64,000 nt of DNA from positions 19,415 through 83,414 of the IMG/VR virus record IMGVR_UViG_2913177423_000001, one strand, 5' to 3'. The position numbers and the translations under genes were made by a program. This document shows, one piece after another, positions 3,937-39,032 of the stretch. The notes beneath the pieces were generated by a model. It did no database searches and was not told the DNA's origin. It was given only the letters and a program-made list of their open reading frames with translations. Position 1 is the stretch's first letter, and each line of letters begins with the position of its first letter. Origin of the DNA: a virus. Taxonomy: Duplodnaviria > Heunggongvirae > Uroviricota > Caudoviricetes.

Positions 3937-4119
3937 AGGGTTTTCGTCATTGTTAGCGACTTTGCGGCTGTTTATAAACTGACCATTAAAGTAAATGCAA
4001 ACGATGATCTGATGATGGTAGCGGCCTAATAAGCCTGACGCCACGGGGTATGAGTCGTCCCCCGTCAAAAAATCGACCACAGAGTGTCCCCGTCTGTGTA
4101 TTAGGGAACGGGGAGGCAT

Positions 4120-4196
4120 AACAGGCAAGGGCGCTGGTGTGATTAACCAGATGAATGAGAAGGGTCAGGTCTTTCTGGTCAGCGCCCTTACCTGTT
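4120..4196 (+). repeat. structured repeat unit, partial (stem module only)
   Basis: AACAGGCAAGGGCGCTG...CAGCGCCCTTACCTGTT, a 17-bp stem resembling the CAACAGGTAAG... stems of the other copies. Confidence 0.4.
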
Positions 4197-4397
4197 ACGT
4201 CCCTCCCGCGTAACAGCCATTGCTTGATGGTATAGGGGAAAGTTTGTTGGTTACGGGTATATCCCGTCATGCTGAAGGCGCTAATCACGCTGGAAGCCAG
4301 GGTTATGCATCCCCTGTTACCGAATTGCAGCCAGGGCGCGTTGCGCCGAAAAGCATACGGAGGTGGAAGCCCTCGCCGGAGACGTACCCGGCACAAT

Positions 4398-4474
4398 GGT
4401 GGTGTAGCTCAGTAGGATAGAGCAGCAGCCTTCTAAGCTGTCGGTCGGTGGTTCGAATCCACTCACCATCGCCA
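4398..4474 (+). tRNA. tRNA-Arg (anticodon UCU, reads AGA)
   Basis: Cloverleaf folded by hand: acceptor GGTGGTG/CACCATC, D arm GCTC/GAGC, anticodon loop CTTCTAA, T arm GGTGG-TTCGAAT-CCACT, encoded CCA. Confidence 0.9.
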
Positions 4475-4478
4475 AATT

Positions 4479-4554
4479 GCCGATTTAGCTCAGTTGGTAG
4501 AGCAGTCGCTTTGTAAGCGAATGGTCAGCGGTTCGATCCCGTTAATCGGCACCA
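4479..4554 (+). tRNA. tRNA-Thr (anticodon UGU, reads ACA)
   Basis: Acceptor GCCGATT/AATCGGC, anticodon loop TTTGTAA, T arm AGCGG-TTCGATC-CCGTT, encoded CCA; 4 nt after tRNA-Arg. Confidence 0.9.
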
Positions 4555-4557
4555 ACA

Positions 4558-4632
4558 CAACAGGTAAGGGCATTCTCCCTTATGGGGCTTGGCTTAAATG
4601 CATCGAGTGCTCTTACCGTTGTGATGAAGTGC
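4558..4632 (+). repeat. structured repeat unit, partial (stem plus tail)
   Basis: CAACAGGTAAGGGCA...TGCTCTTACCGTTG stem followed by TGATGAAGTGC; begins 4 nt after tRNA-Thr. Confidence 0.45.
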
Positions 4633-4813
4633 AGCTCTTTGAAGCAACCAGAAGATAAGCATCTGGCTTCACAACATAAACCGCAGGAACGACCAATAAA
4701 CGGTAGTCCGTATGGCGAACACCCCGTTGAGGAAGAGGCCTGGCCGGAACCGTAACCGGCACTACAACGTTGAGAGCATTGGCGTAACGGGGTCATATCC
4801 CAATCTATGAATA

Positions 4814-6026: not shown

Positions 6027-6102
6027 GGCCCCTTAGCTCAGTGGTTAGAGCTGGCGACTCATAATCGCACGGCCATCGGTTCAAATCCGGTAGGGGCCAC
6101 CA
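6027..6102 (+). tRNA. tRNA with CAU anticodon, Ile2 (ileX-like, AUA reader) rather than Met
   Basis: Acceptor GGCCCCT/AGGGGCC, D arm and anticodon stem-loop GGCGA-CTCATAA-TCGC match my memory of E. coli ileX/ileY; encoded CCA. Confidence 0.85.
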
Positions 6103-27246: not shown

Positions 27247-27352
27247 GAAAACACACTGTTGCGCCCTGGCATTATCGTGGGGTATATTTCTACGGCACCT
27301 TAGAAAAACGGGTGCCGGGATTGGTCTCCCGGTAATGTCAAAGGCGACACAT

Positions 27353-27374
27353 AGACGCCGCAAGCGTCTTTTTT
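27353..27374 (+). terminator. intrinsic terminator inside the immI-like leader
   Basis: AGACGC-cgcaa-GCGTCT followed by TTTTT. Confidence 0.7.
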
Positions 27375-27538
27375 GTTGTCGGCGCACTCGCACACCTATC
27401 AATGGTGGGCTGTGTGGTGGCTTCCTCGGAAGCGCCGGTTCCCTTTGACGCCGGTAAGACCAACTCCACACAGTCCACCGCCAGTAAGATTGGTCTCTTC
27501 GGCGGTGGTATCGTTCACTGTCAAAGGAGGCTGCCAAT

Positions 27539-31715: not shown

Positions 31716-32045
31716 ATGGGCTATAGCAGACTCGACGATCGATACATTGAAGACGATATTCTGCGCGCACTGTTCCACCAGGAGATGATTAAACGGGTAT
31801 CGGAATATCACCCGGATAACTTCCAGTACACGATAAAAATTGATGAAGTCTATCGTTCAGACCTGGCTGCCTACCGGGCGTATGGGAACGCAGATTTACG
31901 CTGGGTATTCAGAGTGCTGGTGGGGCATGAATCAGAAATGGAAGAAATGCCCGCCGGGACCACGTTAACTCTCCCTGATGTGGCATGGCTGAGAAACAAG
32001 ATCCGTGATTATGCTGGCGCTGAACCGGAGATAAAAAATGCCTGA
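31716..32045 (+). CDS. hypothetical late protein, 109 aa
   Basis: ATG ORF; overlaps the next gene by 8 nt. Confidence 0.6.
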   Translation: MGYSRLDDRYIEDDILRALFHQEMIKRVSEYHPDNFQYTIKIDEVYRSDLAAYRAYGNADLRWVFRVLVGHESEMEEMPAGTTLTLPDVAWLRNKIRDYAGAEPEIKNA

Positions 32046-33234
32046 TTTCCTGAAAAACCAGGACGGGCGCTATATCACTGACGGCCTGTCCTCTAAGGAC
32101 TTCACGCGTATATTCGACCTTATCAGGAAAGAACAAACCCGTAAGCGCCGACAAGCTCACCGAACGCTTACACCTGGCAGACTGAGGAACAAATCCGCCG
32201 AAGATATTCTCAAGTTAGGGAAGAAGAAAGGCGGCACGTTCTTTACGCGAGACGATCTGAAAGGTTTCGAAAAGCTACGGAGTAAAACGCGCGAAAAATA
32301 TGACAGCAAGACGGCTGGCATTACATACGCCCAGCTGGTGGCGTCCAGCCAGGCTATCGATATTAAGCGTGCAAATAACGCCGTAGACGACGGTTCCGGT
32401 ATCAAAAGAGCTACGCCCGTATCTCTTCGCCACAACGTGATTAATATCCGCGTAGAAGCATCAGATATATCCGTCCACCAGCATCATATCGTCCGGATAC
32501 GCTTTGAAGAATGGGATCAGATGGTCGATGACATCGCAGAAGACGATAAATCAGCCCTGAAAGTCACTAAATCACTGTGTGCTGGGCGGGTATCTTTCGA
32601 TTGTGACTGTGGTCGTCATCAATACTGGTATCGTTACATCGCCACTGCGGGTAACTTTGCCCTGGCACCGCCAAAAGAATACGCCTATCCAAAAGTTCGC
32701 AACCCGAAGCTGCAAGGCGTCGCCTGTAAACACGTGATCCACTCAATGACGCGGTTACAGTCCGCCAGTTGGCAAATGAGTATTGCTCGTGCGCTACAAA
32801 AGGCTGCAACGCAAATTGCATTTGGTGACGATCGCCGCCGTACAACCAAACACTTCTCAAAAGAAGACGAGAAGGAGTTTAATCGCAATCGTAGCAGTAA
32901 AACGAACGTTGAAGCCGCCAAACGCGAATGGAGGCTCTATCAGAAACGCCAGGCCGCTTTAAGCACAAAACTGGCAAAGGACAACGGCAAGATTGACATG
33001 CTACGTGACCAGCTGACCAGGGCCAGAAAGTTGTCAGACGCACAGAAAAAACGAGCGGCAGCAAAAGAAGCGGCCTTGCAACGCGAGAAACAGAAAAACA
33101 AGGAGCTTCAGCAACGCCTTGCCGATCAGTTCGCACTGAAGAAGCAGGCGTTCATTGATGCGCTTGTCATGGCAGGAACGTCACCTGAGCAAGCTGAAAA
33201 AATGTTTATGGAGTATGTGAAGAAAGGTTCTTAA
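32038..33234 (+). CDS. SWIM-zinc-finger-like protein with basic coiled-coil tail
   Basis: CDCGRHQYWY...GVACKHVIH matches the CxC...CxH SWIM pattern; the C-terminus is Lys/Arg/Gln-rich coiled coil. Confidence 0.6.
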   Translation: MPDFLKNQDGRYITDGLSSKDFTRIFDLIRKEQTRKRRQAHRTLTPGRLRNKSAEDILKLGKKKGGTFFTRDDLKGFEKLRSKTREKYDSKTAGITYAQLVASSQAIDIKRANNAVDDGSGIKRATPVSLRHNVINIRVEASDISVHQHHIVRIRFEEWDQMVDDIAEDDKSALKVTKSLCAGRVSFDCDCGRHQYWYRYIATAGNFALAPPKEYAYPKVRNPKLQGVACKHVIHSMTRLQSASWQMSIARALQKAATQIAFGDDRRRTTKHFSKEDEKEFNRNRSSKTNVEAAKREWRLYQKRQAALSTKLAKDNGKIDMLRDQLTRARKLSDAQKKRAAAKEAALQREKQKNKELQQRLADQFALKKQAFIDALVMAGTSPEQAEKMFMEYVKKGS

Positions 33235-33267
33235 TTTACAACAAAGGCGGTTATCCCGCCTTTTATA

Positions 33268-34005
33268 TTACTTGTCCTTTGATGTCGATTGAGACTCATA
33301 TATTGCCTCTACGTCATCTATTAGTTTATTAATACCCCACAATCCAGTGTCTTTATAAAAATCGCTTTCTTCAATTGCTTTTAATAAATCGGCAAAATCT
33401 TCTTGGGTGGAAATTCTTTTCTTTTTTGCTTTATATACATCGACAATTACTTTTATGCCGTGATACAGAGCCACTCTGGCACTCTCAATCTCTCTCTTCT
33501 TCTCTTCAATTGCAGACAATAATTTATATTGATCTTCTGTTTGCTTTTCTAGACTTAAAAGCTTGTTCTCTTTTTGCTTCAGGTTGATCTGCAATTCTTT
33601 TATTCTTGCTCTCTCTTCTAAATCAAACTCATAGTCAATGTATCTGATTCTTGCATAGTTCCTCCCTGTTGCTTTTGATATACACATTGTTATATAAGGC
33701 ATTACCACTGACGCAGTGGTTCCATATATAAATGGCATAACAAAATGAGCCACAAACGGAGATACAACGATGGGACCAATATAAGGAAAGTGATATTTCT
33801 CGCCAACCCATACTATAGACAATGTTGTATATATATCGTACTTTGATTTAAATAAAATAATAATATCCTGCCAGTTAACGACAAAAAAAGAAACCACAAC
33901 ATATGCAAACAACTTATTAAATAACTTGTCTCTTATGGCTTCTTCGATTGTGTTCTTGACTGTGACATTTTCATCTTTATTTTCTAGTGATGAATCTTTG
34001 CTCAT
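33268..34005 (-). CDS. membrane-anchored coiled-coil protein on an AT-rich island; candidate exclusion/abortive-infection factor
   Basis: Three hydrophobic segments followed by heptad-rich LEERARIKELQINLKQKENKLLSLEKQTE. Visibly lower GC than its neighbours. Start could be the ATG at 34005 or the TTG at 34017. Confidence 0.6.
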   Translation of the reverse strand: MSKDSSLENKDENVTVKNTIEEAIRDKLFNKLFAYVVVSFFVVNWQDIIILFKSKYDIYTTLSIVWVGEKYHFPYIGPIVVSPFVAHFVMPFIYGTTASVVMPYITMCISKATGRNYARIRYIDYEFDLEERARIKELQINLKQKENKLLSLEKQTEDQYKLLSAIEEKKREIESARVALYHGIKVIVDVYKAKKKRISTQEDFADLLKAIEESDFYKDTGLWGINKLIDDVEAIYESQSTSKDK

Positions 34006-34066
34006 ATAAACAATCAAACCTTCTTATCTTTATTTTTGGTAAAGGCGGTCATCCAGACCGCCAAAC

Positions 34067-34426
34067 TCAAACACCAACCAGGCTTTCAAGAGGAATACCA
34101 AACTGGGAATGTAAACGACGAATCATAGGTAACGTCAAATTTCGTGTCCCATTAAGCACTTCGTAAACACGGTTTGACTTACCAATTGCCGGTTCCAGAT
34201 CCTTCACTGTCAGCCCTTGCTGTTCCATACGAAACTTAATGGCTTCAATAGGTGATGGTGGCTCTATTGGGTAATGCTTTTTCTCGTACTCTTCAATGAG
34301 CAGGCACATTACTTCAAAGAAATCGCCTTCCGGTGTGTTCATTTCCGGTTCGTTATCGAACATCGGTTCGACCGCACGCAGTGCGGCCTCATAATCTTGT
34401 TCTGTACGGATAGGTTTAATGTTCAT
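34067..34426 (-). CDS. higA: HigA antitoxin (XRE HTH)
   Basis: C-terminal GLTVKDLEPAIGKSNRVYEVLNGTRNLTLPMIRRLHSQFGIP resembles E. coli HigA; lies downstream of higB in the reversed TA order. Confidence 0.8.
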   Translation of the reverse strand: MNIKPIRTEQDYEAALRAVEPMFDNEPEMNTPEGDFFEVMCLLIEEYEKKHYPIEPPSPIEAIKFRMEQQGLTVKDLEPAIGKSNRVYEVLNGTRNLTLPMIRRLHSQFGIPLESLVGV

Positions 34427-34429
34427 GAT

Positions 34430-34732
34430 TTACTCCAGTTCTATTGTATCCGCTTCAATGGCATCGTATTCCTTATGTGTTCCAATAAACTTAACGAACA
34501 TCCATCCTCGCTGATAAGCAATTGCGACAATTAACCTGTAATCATTTCCCTTAATATTGAACACCACGCGCCTGTTTTTAAGGATGCTGGCTGTCCGGTA
34601 CTGTTCTTTGATCTCAGCCGGATTTTTCCAGTCAGCCTTTGTTGCTTCATCAACCCATGCCTTTAATGGCTGTTCTGCATCGGGATTCTTCGCCCAGAAA
34701 TCCCTTAGTGTTTTTACCGAAATTATTTTCAT
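34430..34732 (-). CDS. higB: HigB mRNA-interferase toxin
   Basis: MKIISVKTLRDFW...FNIKGNDYRLIVAI...GTHKEYD; GAAGGAA RBS before the ATG at 34732. Confidence 0.8.
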   Translation of the reverse strand: MKIISVKTLRDFWAKNPDAEQPLKAWVDEATKADWKNPAEIKEQYRTASILKNRRVVFNIKGNDYRLIVAIAYQRGWMFVKFIGTHKEYDAIEADTIELE

Positions 34733-34762
34733 CACAGATTCCTTCTCTCTGAAAGCAGAGTA

Positions 34763-34807
34763 GTCCCAATATGGGACAATGTAAAGCACTTTAGTCCCAT
34801 GCTGGGA
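34763..34807. promoter_or_regulatory. two palindromes upstream of higB (likely HigA operators)
   Basis: GTCCCAATATGGGAC (34763-34777) and TCCCATGCTGGGA (34795-34807). Confidence 0.55.
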
Positions 34808-34814
34808 TATGAAT

Positions 34815-34837
34815 TGAAATCACAATCTCCAGACAAT
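34815..34837 (+). promoter_or_regulatory. late-promoter-like box TGAAATCACAATCTCCAGACAAT
   Basis: Family member; its -10 overlaps the track ATG at 34836, which argues for a downstream start. Confidence 0.5.
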
Positions 34838-34877: not shown

Positions 34878-35669
34878 ATGGGCCGTTTTGACGAATGGTT
34901 TGCTGACGATGCAAACCTGGTAAGTAAGGAGTCAGAACATGACAGCACGCAGAGAGAAACGCCAGCGCCGATTGAAGAGGATGCAGGAGGCGCGCCGGAA
35001 CATGGCAATACCGGATCGGATTCATTCAGCATTCTGGAAGAGCAATCCACCGCCGAAGCTGATCGCCATGATAATTTCCCTGGTAGCGGCGGTAGTTTTA
35101 CTCCGGACACTGGAGAACCTGATATAGCCATTCTGCCATCTTCCCTGGCAGGCAGAGAACCAACTCCACAGCTAAAAACACGCTATAACGGGCATAAAGC
35201 CTTTAACGACCAGATCCGTGCTGACTGGATGTTAATTATTGAATCCAGCCCAGACGCGTTCCAGGCGCTCTTATACCGACCTGATGTCGGCACATATGGC
35301 GTGGTCAGCGACGAAACTGGAGAAGAGTCATTCACTGAACTGGATAACAACCAGCGCGAACTGACTTACCAGGAACCTGAAATCGTTTATGTGCTGGATA
35401 ACCCTGATGGGCGTGACTCTTTCCATGCTCTTGACTCAGACGGTGAGCAGGACGGTCTGACTGATGACGTCCTTATTCTGCGAATCGCCGCAAATAACGT
35501 ACCCGTCGGCTCAATTCTTGAGTGGAATGAAGAGATGGCAAATGGTGTAGCTCGCCGCTGGTGGTATGTACACCGTATTTTCAGTTACGGCACACAGCAT
35601 GTCGGCTCGCTTTACTACTGCATACCCGCAAGAAACTTTGATACGACTCAGAATGGGGTGATCGAGTAA
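34878..35669 (+). CDS. acidic late (virion/baseplate module) protein
   Basis: ATG at 34878 lies 6 nt after GAGG and downstream of the promoter box; TAATG overlap with the next gene. Confidence 0.6.
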   Translation: MGRFDEWFADDANLVSKESEHDSTQRETPAPIEEDAGGAPEHGNTGSDSFSILEEQSTAEADRHDNFPGSGGSFTPDTGEPDIAILPSSLAGREPTPQLKTRYNGHKAFNDQIRADWMLIIESSPDAFQALLYRPDVGTYGVVSDETGEESFTELDNNQRELTYQEPEIVYVLDNPDGRDSFHALDSDGEQDGLTDDVLILRIAANNVPVGSILEWNEEMANGVARRWWYVHRIFSYGTQHVGSLYYCIPARNFDTTQNGVIE

Positions 35670-38126: not shown

Positions 38127-39032
38127 ATGAGATCTGTCGCTTTCAAAAACATCTTCATCTATCGTCTTTCACGTGAAGTTAACTGGAGTGCCGCAGAAGT
38201 ATCCGATGCTCTTAGCAAATTCGTGTTTACTCCTTGCGGTTCTCAGGACACAGCTAAAGTCGGTTGGACACCTGTTCTTGGTGACAACCTCACCCATGAA
38301 TACCAGGGTTTTCTGCTAATACAGCATAAGCGAGAAGAAAAAATTCTCCCTTCGCAGGTGCTCAAGGAAGAGTTGCAGAAAAAAGTCCTGAAACTCGAAG
38401 AAGAGCAAGCACGCAAGCTGAAGAAAACGGAAAGAGACAGTCTTAAAGATGAAGTCCTGCATTCCCTTTTGCCTCGCGCGTTCACGAGAAAATCACTCGC
38501 CAAAATCCTGATCGACCGCAGCAACCATCTGGTATTCGTTGAGGCAAGCAGCGCCAAAAAGGCAGAGGATCAGCTGGCTTTATTGCGAAAATCGCTCGGC
38601 AGCCTGCCCGTCATTCCATTCACACCACGCGAACCGCTGGAAATCACAATGACCGAGTGGTTTAAAAACGGCTTCCCTGCCGGATTCACAGCAGGTGAAG
38701 ATGCCACATTAAAGGCTCTGTTTGATGATGGTGGTGCCGTTCGCTGCAACAAAGTTGATCTACAGTCCGACGAGATTATGTCTCACATTGAGGCGGGGAA
38801 AGTAGCTACGACCGTTGCAATTAACTGGATGGACCGCGCGTCGTTCAGAGTAAACGATGATATGAGTATCAAAGCCCTGACATTCTGTGATGATCTCTAT
38901 GACCAGAATGACGATATCGACCGGGAGGATGTAGCACAACGATTTGATGCTGATTTCGTGCTCTTTACGGGCGAATTATCTGCACTGTTTAACGCGCTGG
39001 TGGAGGCCATTGGCGGTGAAGCAGAACGATAA
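38127..39032 (+). CDS. rdgC: RdgC recombination-associated protein
   Basis: Colinear with E. coli RdgC as remembered ([67 protein letters not shown]). Confidence 0.9.

Follow-up and report, generated by a model that had tools for sequence, protein, structure and literature searches.

Phage D6 (MF356679) carries, between its homologues of the P1 tail genes 25 and 7, a group of open reading frames (orf70-orf73) that offers a described parallel to the segment reported here, namely three AT-rich minus-strand genes occupying the same slot in a 64,000-nucleotide stretch of a Caudoviricetes genome (positions 19,415 to 83,414 of IMG/VR record IMGVR_UViG_2913177423_000001; hereafter the window). These genes encode a HigB-HigA toxin-antitoxin pair (HigBA) and a 245-residue membrane-anchored coiled-coil protein, and the element that harbours them belongs to the same phage-plasmid family as D6. 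The product of D6 orf72 is 98% identical to the window HigA, and orf73 is homologous to the gene of the 245-residue protein, although it represents a different allele (35-40% identical, depending on the alignment). D6 differs, in addition, by having lost higB, in whose place it carries orf70 and orf71, for a RelE/ParE-type toxin and a second HigA, under another operator, meaning that orf72 is left as an orphan antitoxin.

The toxin-antitoxin pair itself can be compared with three other systems. HigB-HigA of Escherichia coli K-12 (structures 5IFG, 5YCL and 6KML/6KMQ) has the same PF09907 toxin, a two-domain antitoxin, the same toxin-first gene order and palindromic promoter sites. The two pairs are, however, only about 25-35% identical, the window HigA has 119 residues versus 138 in K-12, and the window pair lies on a plasmid prophage instead of a chromosome, precedes a membrane-protein gene and has a variant-specific operator. 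The P1 phd-doc locus, a type II pair that stabilises P1-type plasmid prophages by post-segregational killing, is a functional analogue of the window HigBA, but it consists of proteins from unrelated families and occupies another genomic position. The third system, the anti-phage PD-lambda-2, is a three-gene operon with a HigB-like first gene and with a HigA-like N-terminal part in its second gene. There, the HigB-like component neutralises its toxic partner, component B, which bears a C-terminal ImmA/IrrE peptidase, and defence requires component C, which is related to a P4 antitoxin (PMC9519451). The window HigA has no such peptidase, and the third gene of the window is unrelated to component C.

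Finally, the gene for the 245-residue protein recalls the morons and exclusion proteins of temperate phages (RexB and SieB of lambda, SieA of P22, gp15 of HK97, Imm of T4) and the variable cargo of P2-like phages, in context and architecture only. It is likewise small and AT-rich, sits within a late operon on the opposite strand or set apart, is present in some elements and missing in others, codes for a membrane protein and has been exchanged in the form of old alleles, but its product shares neither sequence nor fold with RexB, SieB, SieA, HK97 gp15 or Imm.

A Cargo Slot in a D6-Type Plasmid Prophage

The segment is a cargo slot of a plasmid prophage, holding a canonical HigBA module and a functional gene of an uncharacterised family. 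Its flanking genes are homologues of P1 genes 25 and 7 (Table 1), whose D6 counterparts, orf74 and orf69, are annotated as 'similar to P1 gene 25' and 'similar to P1 gene 7', respectively. In P1 and in Cronobacter phage JK004 the two genes are contiguous, with gene 7 beginning 3 nt after gene 25 in an operon of the order 26-25-7-24-6-5, so that the DNA separating them in the window is an addition relative to these related phages. The gene 25/7 junction is carried by about 110 D6-type plasmids among the complete E. coli genomes, and minus-strand cargo was present in every one examined. The cargo also has a distinct base composition and transcription signals of its own, that is, a predicted promoter with operators and a terminator. 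The GC content is 0.333 in the 245-residue protein gene, 0.444 in higA and 0.416 in higB, compared to 0.495 and 0.505 in the flanks and 0.472 in the window. The initial annotation, made from the sequence alone, had described an AT-rich insertion of three minus-strand genes between late operons, and this description holds for the gene content (open reading frames listed over 33235-34835, the three genes falling within 33268-34732), for the base composition and for the end of the upstream operon at 33234, the gene 25 homologue being the final gene ahead of the slot.

The edges of the slot could be placed precisely. On the left, a bidirectional intrinsic terminator closes both gene 25 on the plus strand and the 245-residue protein gene on the minus strand, with folding energies of -11.7 and -15.4 kcal/mol, respectively (z about -4.4), and on the minus strand it is followed by the U-tract UUUGUUGU. 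On the right, 11 cargo variants all rejoin at AAATCACAATCTCC, from window position 34816 onward. The restart of the plus-strand operon, formerly put at about 34815, corresponds therefore to the variable edge of the slot, and gene 7 itself most likely starts further on: its longest open reading frame begins at 34836, but the PHROG alignment, a ribosome-binding site (GAGGA) and the RefSeq starts in relatives favour the ATG at 34878.

The element is a D6-type, P1-related plasmid prophage and not an integrated prophage. This follows from its likeness to D6 (90% regional match in sequence comparison), from the location of all its matches in complete E. coli genomes (95 of 95) on plasmids of about 90 kb, with none on a chromosome, from the 118 matching PLSDB plasmids (93 from Escherichia, 19 from Salmonella and 6 from Shigella) and from a P1-type C4 antisense RNA at window positions 27398-27485 (Rfam, 74 bits). 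The PLSDB plasmids are non-mobilizable in 115 of the 118 cases and measure 75-97 kb among the matches listed. The term "prophage" used at first has to be read, consequently, as plasmid prophage, a lifestyle that the initial annotation had missed. The C4 RNA stands beside an isrK match (27295-27374; Rfam, 61 bits), and the region 27295-27485 is presumably the P1-type immunity region (immI). The C4/isrK region corroborates the relatedness of the element to P1. The window contains in addition three tRNA genes, Arg(tct), Thr(tgt) and Met(cat), at 4398-4554 and 6027-6102.

Table 1. Genes and sequence elements in and around the cargo slot (window coordinates).
Feature	Position	Strand	Basis or remark
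P1 gene 25 homologue (tail protein)	32038..33234	+	phrog_1722, 4e-196; 57% identity to P1 gp25 (tblastn)
Bidirectional intrinsic terminator hairpin, AAAGGCGG-TTATC-CCGCCTTT	33243..33263	both	terminator scan and folding
Left 9-bp direct repeat, AAAGGCGGT	33243..33251		bounds a cassette of about 800 bp holding the 245-residue protein gene
245-residue membrane-anchored coiled-coil protein gene ('MCC')	33268..34005	-	open reading frame; phrog_8191
Right 9-bp direct repeat, AAAGGCGGT	34041..34049		other end of the cassette
Hairpin GGCGGTC-ATCCA-GACCGCC	34044..34062	-	directly 3' of higA; -15.7 kcal/mol, z -3.4
higA, antitoxin, 119 residues, N-terminal domain and C-terminal Xre-type helix-turn-helix	34067..34426	-	HTH_3
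higB, toxin, 100 residues, predicted YgjN-type RelE-fold mRNA interferase	34430..34732	-	PF09907
Predicted higBA promoter: -35 TTTACA (34785-34780), 17-nt spacer, -10 TACTCT (34762-34757)	34757..34785	-	read from the sequence
Predicted operator O1, TCCCAATATGGGA	34764..34776		pattern count; inside the promoter spacer
Predicted operator O2, TCCCATGCTGGGA	34795..34807		pattern count; 9 nt upstream of the -35
Candidate D6-type late promoter: -22-like AAATCACAA, 6 nt, -10-like GACAAT	34817..34837	+	motif enrichment
P1 gene 7 homologue (tail protein)	34878..35669	+	phrog_1906, 3e-114, aligned from residue 14 of the longest open reading frame

The HigB-HigA Pair

The identity of the higB-higA pair, already recognised in the initial annotation, was substantiated by profile and structure matches. 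HigB, whose start was set at the ATG that yields the product annotated in relatives, matches the HigB_toxin family PF09907 over all 74 positions of the profile (3.3e-34; a score of 117 bits, the cut-off being 27) and the structures of K-12 HigB (5YCL/5IFG/6KML, 1e-7), and the three HigB versions that were aligned all conserve a TH-x-(E/D)-YD motif at the C terminus. HigA matches HTH_3 at residues 63-115 (3.5e-5, above the cut-off) and the K-12 HigA structures 5YCL/5IFG at residues 6-112 (2e-8). With higB located upstream of higA, at a distance of 3 nt, the genes have the reversed order of this class. As judged from these similarities, higB-higA belongs, as a canonical type II pair, to the YgjN/YgjM family of E. 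coli K-12. HigB would act as a ribosome-dependent mRNA endonuclease, with HigA neutralising it through its N-terminal domain.

The two palindromes noticed ahead of the pair proved to be real, being the only matches of TCCCANNNTGGGA in the 64 kb (0.04 expected). They have the form TCCCA-N3-TGGGA, with centres 31 bp apart, and occur in every HigB-type variant of the slot, while RelE-type variants lack them and have a palindrome of their own. Other HigBA versions, in the loci L019 and L035, have their own paired palindromes at the equivalent position. The arrangement of the palindromes around the putative higBA promoter fits autoregulation by HigA, whose C-terminal helix-turn-helix would bind the two operators and repress the operon. 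The -10 hexamer of this promoter reads TACTCT in the window and TACTAT in four other HigB-type plasmids (L002, L004, L009 and L010); the difference may represent a promoter-down change in the window copy.

For a pair carried by a plasmid prophage, addiction is the obvious interpretation, and HigBA likely serves as an addiction module that would eliminate cells losing the low-copy plasmid. In agreement, higA-higB is named, beside phd-doc, among the post-segregational killing systems of D6-like plasmid prophages (PMC6799933). A tblastn search with P1 sequences gave no match to phd-doc in the window, but this test was too weak to be informative.

It could be argued, alternatively, that the main role of HigBA is anti-phage abortive infection. 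The first PADLOC component of PD-lambda-2 (PDLC03979, PD-Lambda-2_A) matches HigB over its full length (1e-41), PD-Lambda-2_B matches HigA (7e-43), several toxin-antitoxin systems confer defence by abortive infection (Vassallo et al., PMC9519451), and a variable hotspot that harbours old alleles, such as this locus, is typical of defence cargo. The HigA match, however, covers only positions 1-119 of the 402 of the PD-Lambda-2_B profile, and both the toxic peptidase fusion and the third component required for defence are absent from the slot, which contains no gene beyond the three described. The PADLOC similarities are thus due to shared domains only, and membership in PD-lambda-2 was rejected. 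Besides, a low-copy plasmid prophage gains an obvious benefit from addiction, and post-segregational killing is also the published reading. Abortive infection as the principal role appears for these reasons quite unlikely. The two roles are mutually compatible, and abortive infection is possible as a second role of the addiction module.

The 245-Residue Membrane Protein and Its Family

The third gene of the cargo encodes a protein that matches phrog_8191 (4e-116), for which PHROG lists an unknown function, and that has no family match in Pfam, PADLOC or NCBIfam. Matches to these three collections across the aligned family are scattered and inconsistent, and were attributed to coiled-coil composition. 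Structure searches gave no similarity to solved or viral folds. No homology was found to the characterised RexB, SieA/SieB, Imm and HK97 gp15 proteins or to 2TM/SLATT-type effectors.

An exhaustive profile search retrieved 73 relatives (cluster representatives), 25 of them below 1e-10 and most with 200-270 residues, and a second indexed protein search with the family profile added essentially no others. The family members share a common layout, in which an N-terminal hydrophilic stretch is followed by two hydrophobic helices, a coiled coil and a small C-terminal helical domain. The first transmembrane helix has a conserved S-x4-N-W motif and a conserved KSK, and the second hydrophobic helix conserved P, G and P residues. 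The AlphaFold model obtained with a diverse alignment has a predicted local distance difference test (pLDDT) score of 84 and places a helix at residues 31-53, a short helix with a beta-hairpin at 58-80, a helix of about 110 residues at 83-193, which includes the second transmembrane segment, and a bundle at 201-243; an earlier model from a narrow alignment (pLDDT 66) was not used. The long coiled coil seen from the start is retained, but the three hydrophobic segments first described are reduced to two of membrane-spanning length (about residues 31-53 and 77-108), since the middle one (59-68) is too short, is specific to the clade of the D6 slot and is missing in distant relatives. According to these predictions, the product would be an inner-membrane protein with two transmembrane helices, cytoplasmic N and C termini, a long coiled coil and a C-terminal bundle. 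The gene is under purifying selection, with a ratio of nonsynonymous to synonymous substitution rates (dN/dS) of 0.15-0.26, compared to 0.03-0.10 for the structural flanks, and is therefore functional.

Relatives of the protein are encoded in other genomic contexts. One (P0029) stands alone and on the opposite strand between the tail gene S and the baseplate gene V of a P2-like prophage. In a reciprocal tblastn search of the phage collection with this relative only D6 orf73 was matched, and P2 orf30 is thus unsupported as a family member. Another (P0031), likewise on the opposite strand, lies in the replication/nin region of a lambdoid prophage, two (P0033 and P0040) are in genomic islands, and the sole relative coming from a scan of a genome collection (P0025) is in an Enterobacter chromosome. 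The relative P0043 adjoins ogr in a degraded P2 remnant (L055:1-1529 and 4001-4696), with an AAA_15/AAA_21 and DUF4435 gene pair 2.5 kb away, a combination that we take to be that described for the PARIS defence system. Two further relatives, P0020 (L013:724-1191) and P0047 (L052:2-487), each lie directly downstream of a umuC/impB-type translesion polymerase gene. A second phage-plasmid lineage, formed by non-mobilizable Citrobacter-type elements of about 97 kb (P0035 and P0034), has the membrane gene after a baseplate gene and on the same strand as the late genes.

This last position, together with those in the tail-gene clusters of D6-type plasmids and of the P2-like prophage, could be taken to mean that the protein forms part of the virion or serves in morphogenesis. 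The gene is, however, on the strand opposite to the tail genes in D6-type and P2-like elements, it is AT-rich, its product has predicted membrane helices, and relatives occur outside phages as well as in the replication/nin region of a lambdoid prophage. Moreover, it is absent from P1 and JK004 and from otherwise intact plasmids of the D6 type, RL465 plasmid II and pEC7-3 among them, which retain all the flanking tail genes. A structural role is in view of this very improbable. A lysogen-expressed function in superinfection exclusion or abortive infection, by analogy with the membrane proteins of other temperate phages, is plausible; what suggests it is the accessory-gene position, the AT-richness and the presence of old alleles swapped at one site.

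Modularity of the Slot and Exchange of Its Genes

The variable presence of the cargo, anticipated in the initial annotation as a matter to check, was confirmed among D6-type plasmids, where the modules differ or are absent. At least seven arrangements were distinguished: (a) the membrane gene with the 119-residue HigA (HigA119) and HigB, as in the window, which is a minority type found in 9 of the 118 plasmids and in 4 of the 21 viral contigs; (b) only HigA119 and HigB; (c) the membrane gene with an intact orphan HigA119, a second HigA of 112 residues and a RelE/ParE toxin, as in D6 itself; (d) the same with HigA119 cut to its N-terminal 65 residues, the commonest type among the matches listed; (e) type (c) minus the membrane gene; (f) a YjaZ-like protein that matches the 'stationary phase growth adaptation protein' family of NCBIfam (NF007263, 4e-101; L007:1760-2299, plasmid pSX4-3); and (g) a 66-residue helix-turn-helix regulator with a long AT-rich upstream region (L008:1599-1799). 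The membrane gene is contained in a cassette bounded by 9-bp direct repeats (Table 1), and plasmids without it (L004 and L006) have a single intact hairpin, ACAACAAAGGCGGTCATACAGACCGCCAAACTCA, at the gene 25/higA junction.

The alleles of the membrane protein at the D6 slot range from 35% to 96% identity. In pairs of plasmids whose synonymous divergence (dS) is only 0.15-0.19 for gene 25 and 0-0.24 for higB/higA, that of the membrane gene is 0.5-2.0. Values that far exceed those of the neighbours indicate that old alleles have been swapped by recombination, instead of having diverged in place.

The trio might also constitute a single three-component system, with the membrane protein as an effector or sensor that is controlled by HigBA, is expressed from its autoregulated promoter and fires when the antitoxin is lost, for example upon infection, as a defence or exclusion cassette gated by the toxin-antitoxin pair. 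The order toxin-antitoxin pair, hairpin, membrane gene on one strand recurs in three deeply diverged versions (window, L035 and L019; identities of 22-54% for HigB, 29-53% for HigA and 24-40% for the membrane protein), and in two phage-plasmid lineages with different insertion sites. Furthermore, the trio has no clear separate promoter and its intervening hairpins have no U-tracts, PD-lambda-2 provides a precedent for a three-gene system based on HigB, and the trio was recently transferred as a block between the window element and L002/L030, with dS of 0.03-0.08 for the three genes versus 0.48 for gene 25 and 1.5 for gene 7. Co-variation of the three genes as a unit was nevertheless not found. 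The locus L035 combines a divergent D6-type backbone and a membrane-protein allele of the D6 clade with the HigBA subtype of K-12 and L019, which indicates that the membrane protein stays with the backbone of the plasmid whereas the neighbouring toxin-antitoxin pairs are swapped independently. HigBA is also found without the membrane gene, the partner upstream of the latter can be drawn from any of several unrelated families (two subtypes of HigBA, RelE/HigA and TacA/GNAT), and the P2-like and lambdoid prophages, the genomic islands and the one chromosome mentioned above have the membrane protein without a recognisable toxin-antitoxin pair. Upstream of these lone members neither Pfam toxin-antitoxin domains nor tblastn matches to HigA or HigB were detected. 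A single three-component system is accordingly unlikely, and a slot holding two modules is the preferred reading.

The exchange of the upstream module has left traces in both phage-plasmid lineages. Neither this turnover nor the recurrent position of the membrane-protein family right behind exchangeable toxin-antitoxin pairs had been noticed in the initial annotation. In the Citrobacter-type lineage, L019 carries HigB (PF09907), HigA, a hairpin and the membrane gene, while in L022, L023 and L028 the membrane gene is preceded by TacA, a GNAT toxin and a remnant of higA that encodes its N-terminal 78 residues (positions 4710-4916 in L022/L023; tblastn 2e-23). In the D6 lineage, a truncated higA for the N-terminal 65 residues is found directly upstream of the membrane gene (L005:2312-2506, L037-L045 and L050). 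As read from these gene remains, higB has been overwritten by another toxin-antitoxin pair in two lineages in parallel, RelE/HigA in one and TacA/GNAT in the other. In both, the helix-turn-helix part of higA was deleted and the first 65-78 residues were kept beside the membrane gene. The retained fragment might be a toxin-binding piece with an anti-addiction function, or the parallel might be coincidental.

Transcription of the Cargo and of the Downstream Tail Genes

The initial annotation gave each unit of the cargo its own hairpin terminator. This is correct for the hairpin after the 245-residue protein gene, but the one after higA has only UUUA behind it on the coding strand and was not called by the terminator scan. 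The latter hairpin is conserved with the higA module in all variants; in plasmids that lack the membrane gene it is followed by a U-tract, which in the window stands after the distal hairpin. Only 27 bp separate the truncated higA from the start of the membrane gene in the most frequent D6 arrangement. The hairpin is probably a leaky terminator or attenuator that permits read-through, and a promoter scan revealed no consensus promoter in the 61-bp gap between higA and the membrane gene. These two features suggest read-through from the higBA promoter, and the membrane gene is likely to be co-transcribed at least in part with higBA and not to form a separate unit.

On the plus strand, a candidate late promoter lies immediately inside the right edge of the slot. 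Its -22-like element AAATCACAA occurs six times in the window (30576, 34817, 38641, 46238 and 62262 on the plus strand and 45721 on the minus strand), against 1.16 expected, a number reached in none of 100 shuffled sequences. In five of the six copies a -10-like hexamer (CATAAT, GACAAT, TATTGT, CATACT or TTAATG) follows after exactly 6 nt, and these five sites are upstream of late-type genes, 45721 and 46238 forming a divergent pair. The copy at 38641 has no such hexamer and is probably due to chance. The copy at 34817 is conserved in 11 of 11 cargo variants, and the layout at this site, with a -22 box plus a -10, is like that of P1 LP26. The enrichment, the hexamer spacing and the likeness to P1 late promoters together point to a late promoter at this site, which would probably restart transcription of genes 7-24-6-5. 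The P1-type late promoter pattern TGACTA-N3-6-TANNNT itself was also considered and rejected, as it occurs at chance level in the window and has no match near the locus.

An Integrated View of the Locus

In summary, the locus can be viewed as an accessory slot between tail genes 25 and 7, bounded by a bidirectional terminator and a probable late promoter, in which a HigBA pair would secure maintenance of the plasmid prophage by post-segregational killing, while a membrane effector, expressed in the lysogen at least partly by read-through from the toxin-antitoxin promoter, would act in superinfection exclusion or abortive infection. Taken as a whole, we hold this description to be probable, with due reserve.

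Several observations weigh against it. The RelE/HigA pair takes the place of higB in 16 of the 21 loci of the viral collection, and higB has been lost or replaced in most D6-type plasmids, from which it follows that the window-type HigB is dispensable for plasmid maintenance. The -10 of the predicted higBA promoter is weak, and the consensus scan, in which this promoter scored under the threshold, did not call it. A promoter-like site in the 3' end of higA (34150-34122, 9 of 12 matches) could make the membrane gene an independent transcription unit. As for the function of the membrane protein, no sequence or fold match links it to known exclusion or abortive-infection proteins, and what argues for such a role is context. 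HigB-like proteins, lastly, can have unexpected roles, as the analogy with PD-lambda-2 illustrates.

The HigBA part of the locus is already known from the annotation of D6 and its relatives and is a routine addiction-type module. Some novelty lies only in the membrane-protein family and in the parallel replacement of toxin-antitoxin pairs. A bolder proposal, which we consider rather doubtful, would be that the family represents a widespread class of temperate-phage membrane effectors, encoded in phage-plasmids by the last gene of an autoregulated toxin-antitoxin operon and switched on once plasmid loss, stress or infection has removed the antitoxin. If this were true, the independent overwriting of higB in the two lineages and the maintenance, each time, of only the N-terminal half of HigA, presumed to bind the toxin, would record a competition between phage-plasmids by addiction and anti-addiction.

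The exact boundaries of the slot make it a natural "socket" for studying how accessory genes are exchanged among phage-plasmids, and the replacement of toxin-antitoxin pairs in parallel, leaving orphan or truncated antitoxins behind, is a testable case of competition between addiction modules. The unannotated membrane-protein family, which is under purifying selection and is carried as cargo by four kinds of temperate elements, is a reasonable candidate for a function in exclusion or defence. Since clinical E. coli, Salmonella and Shigella commonly carry D6-type plasmids, factors that stabilise them or exclude their rivals bear on the persistence of these elements.

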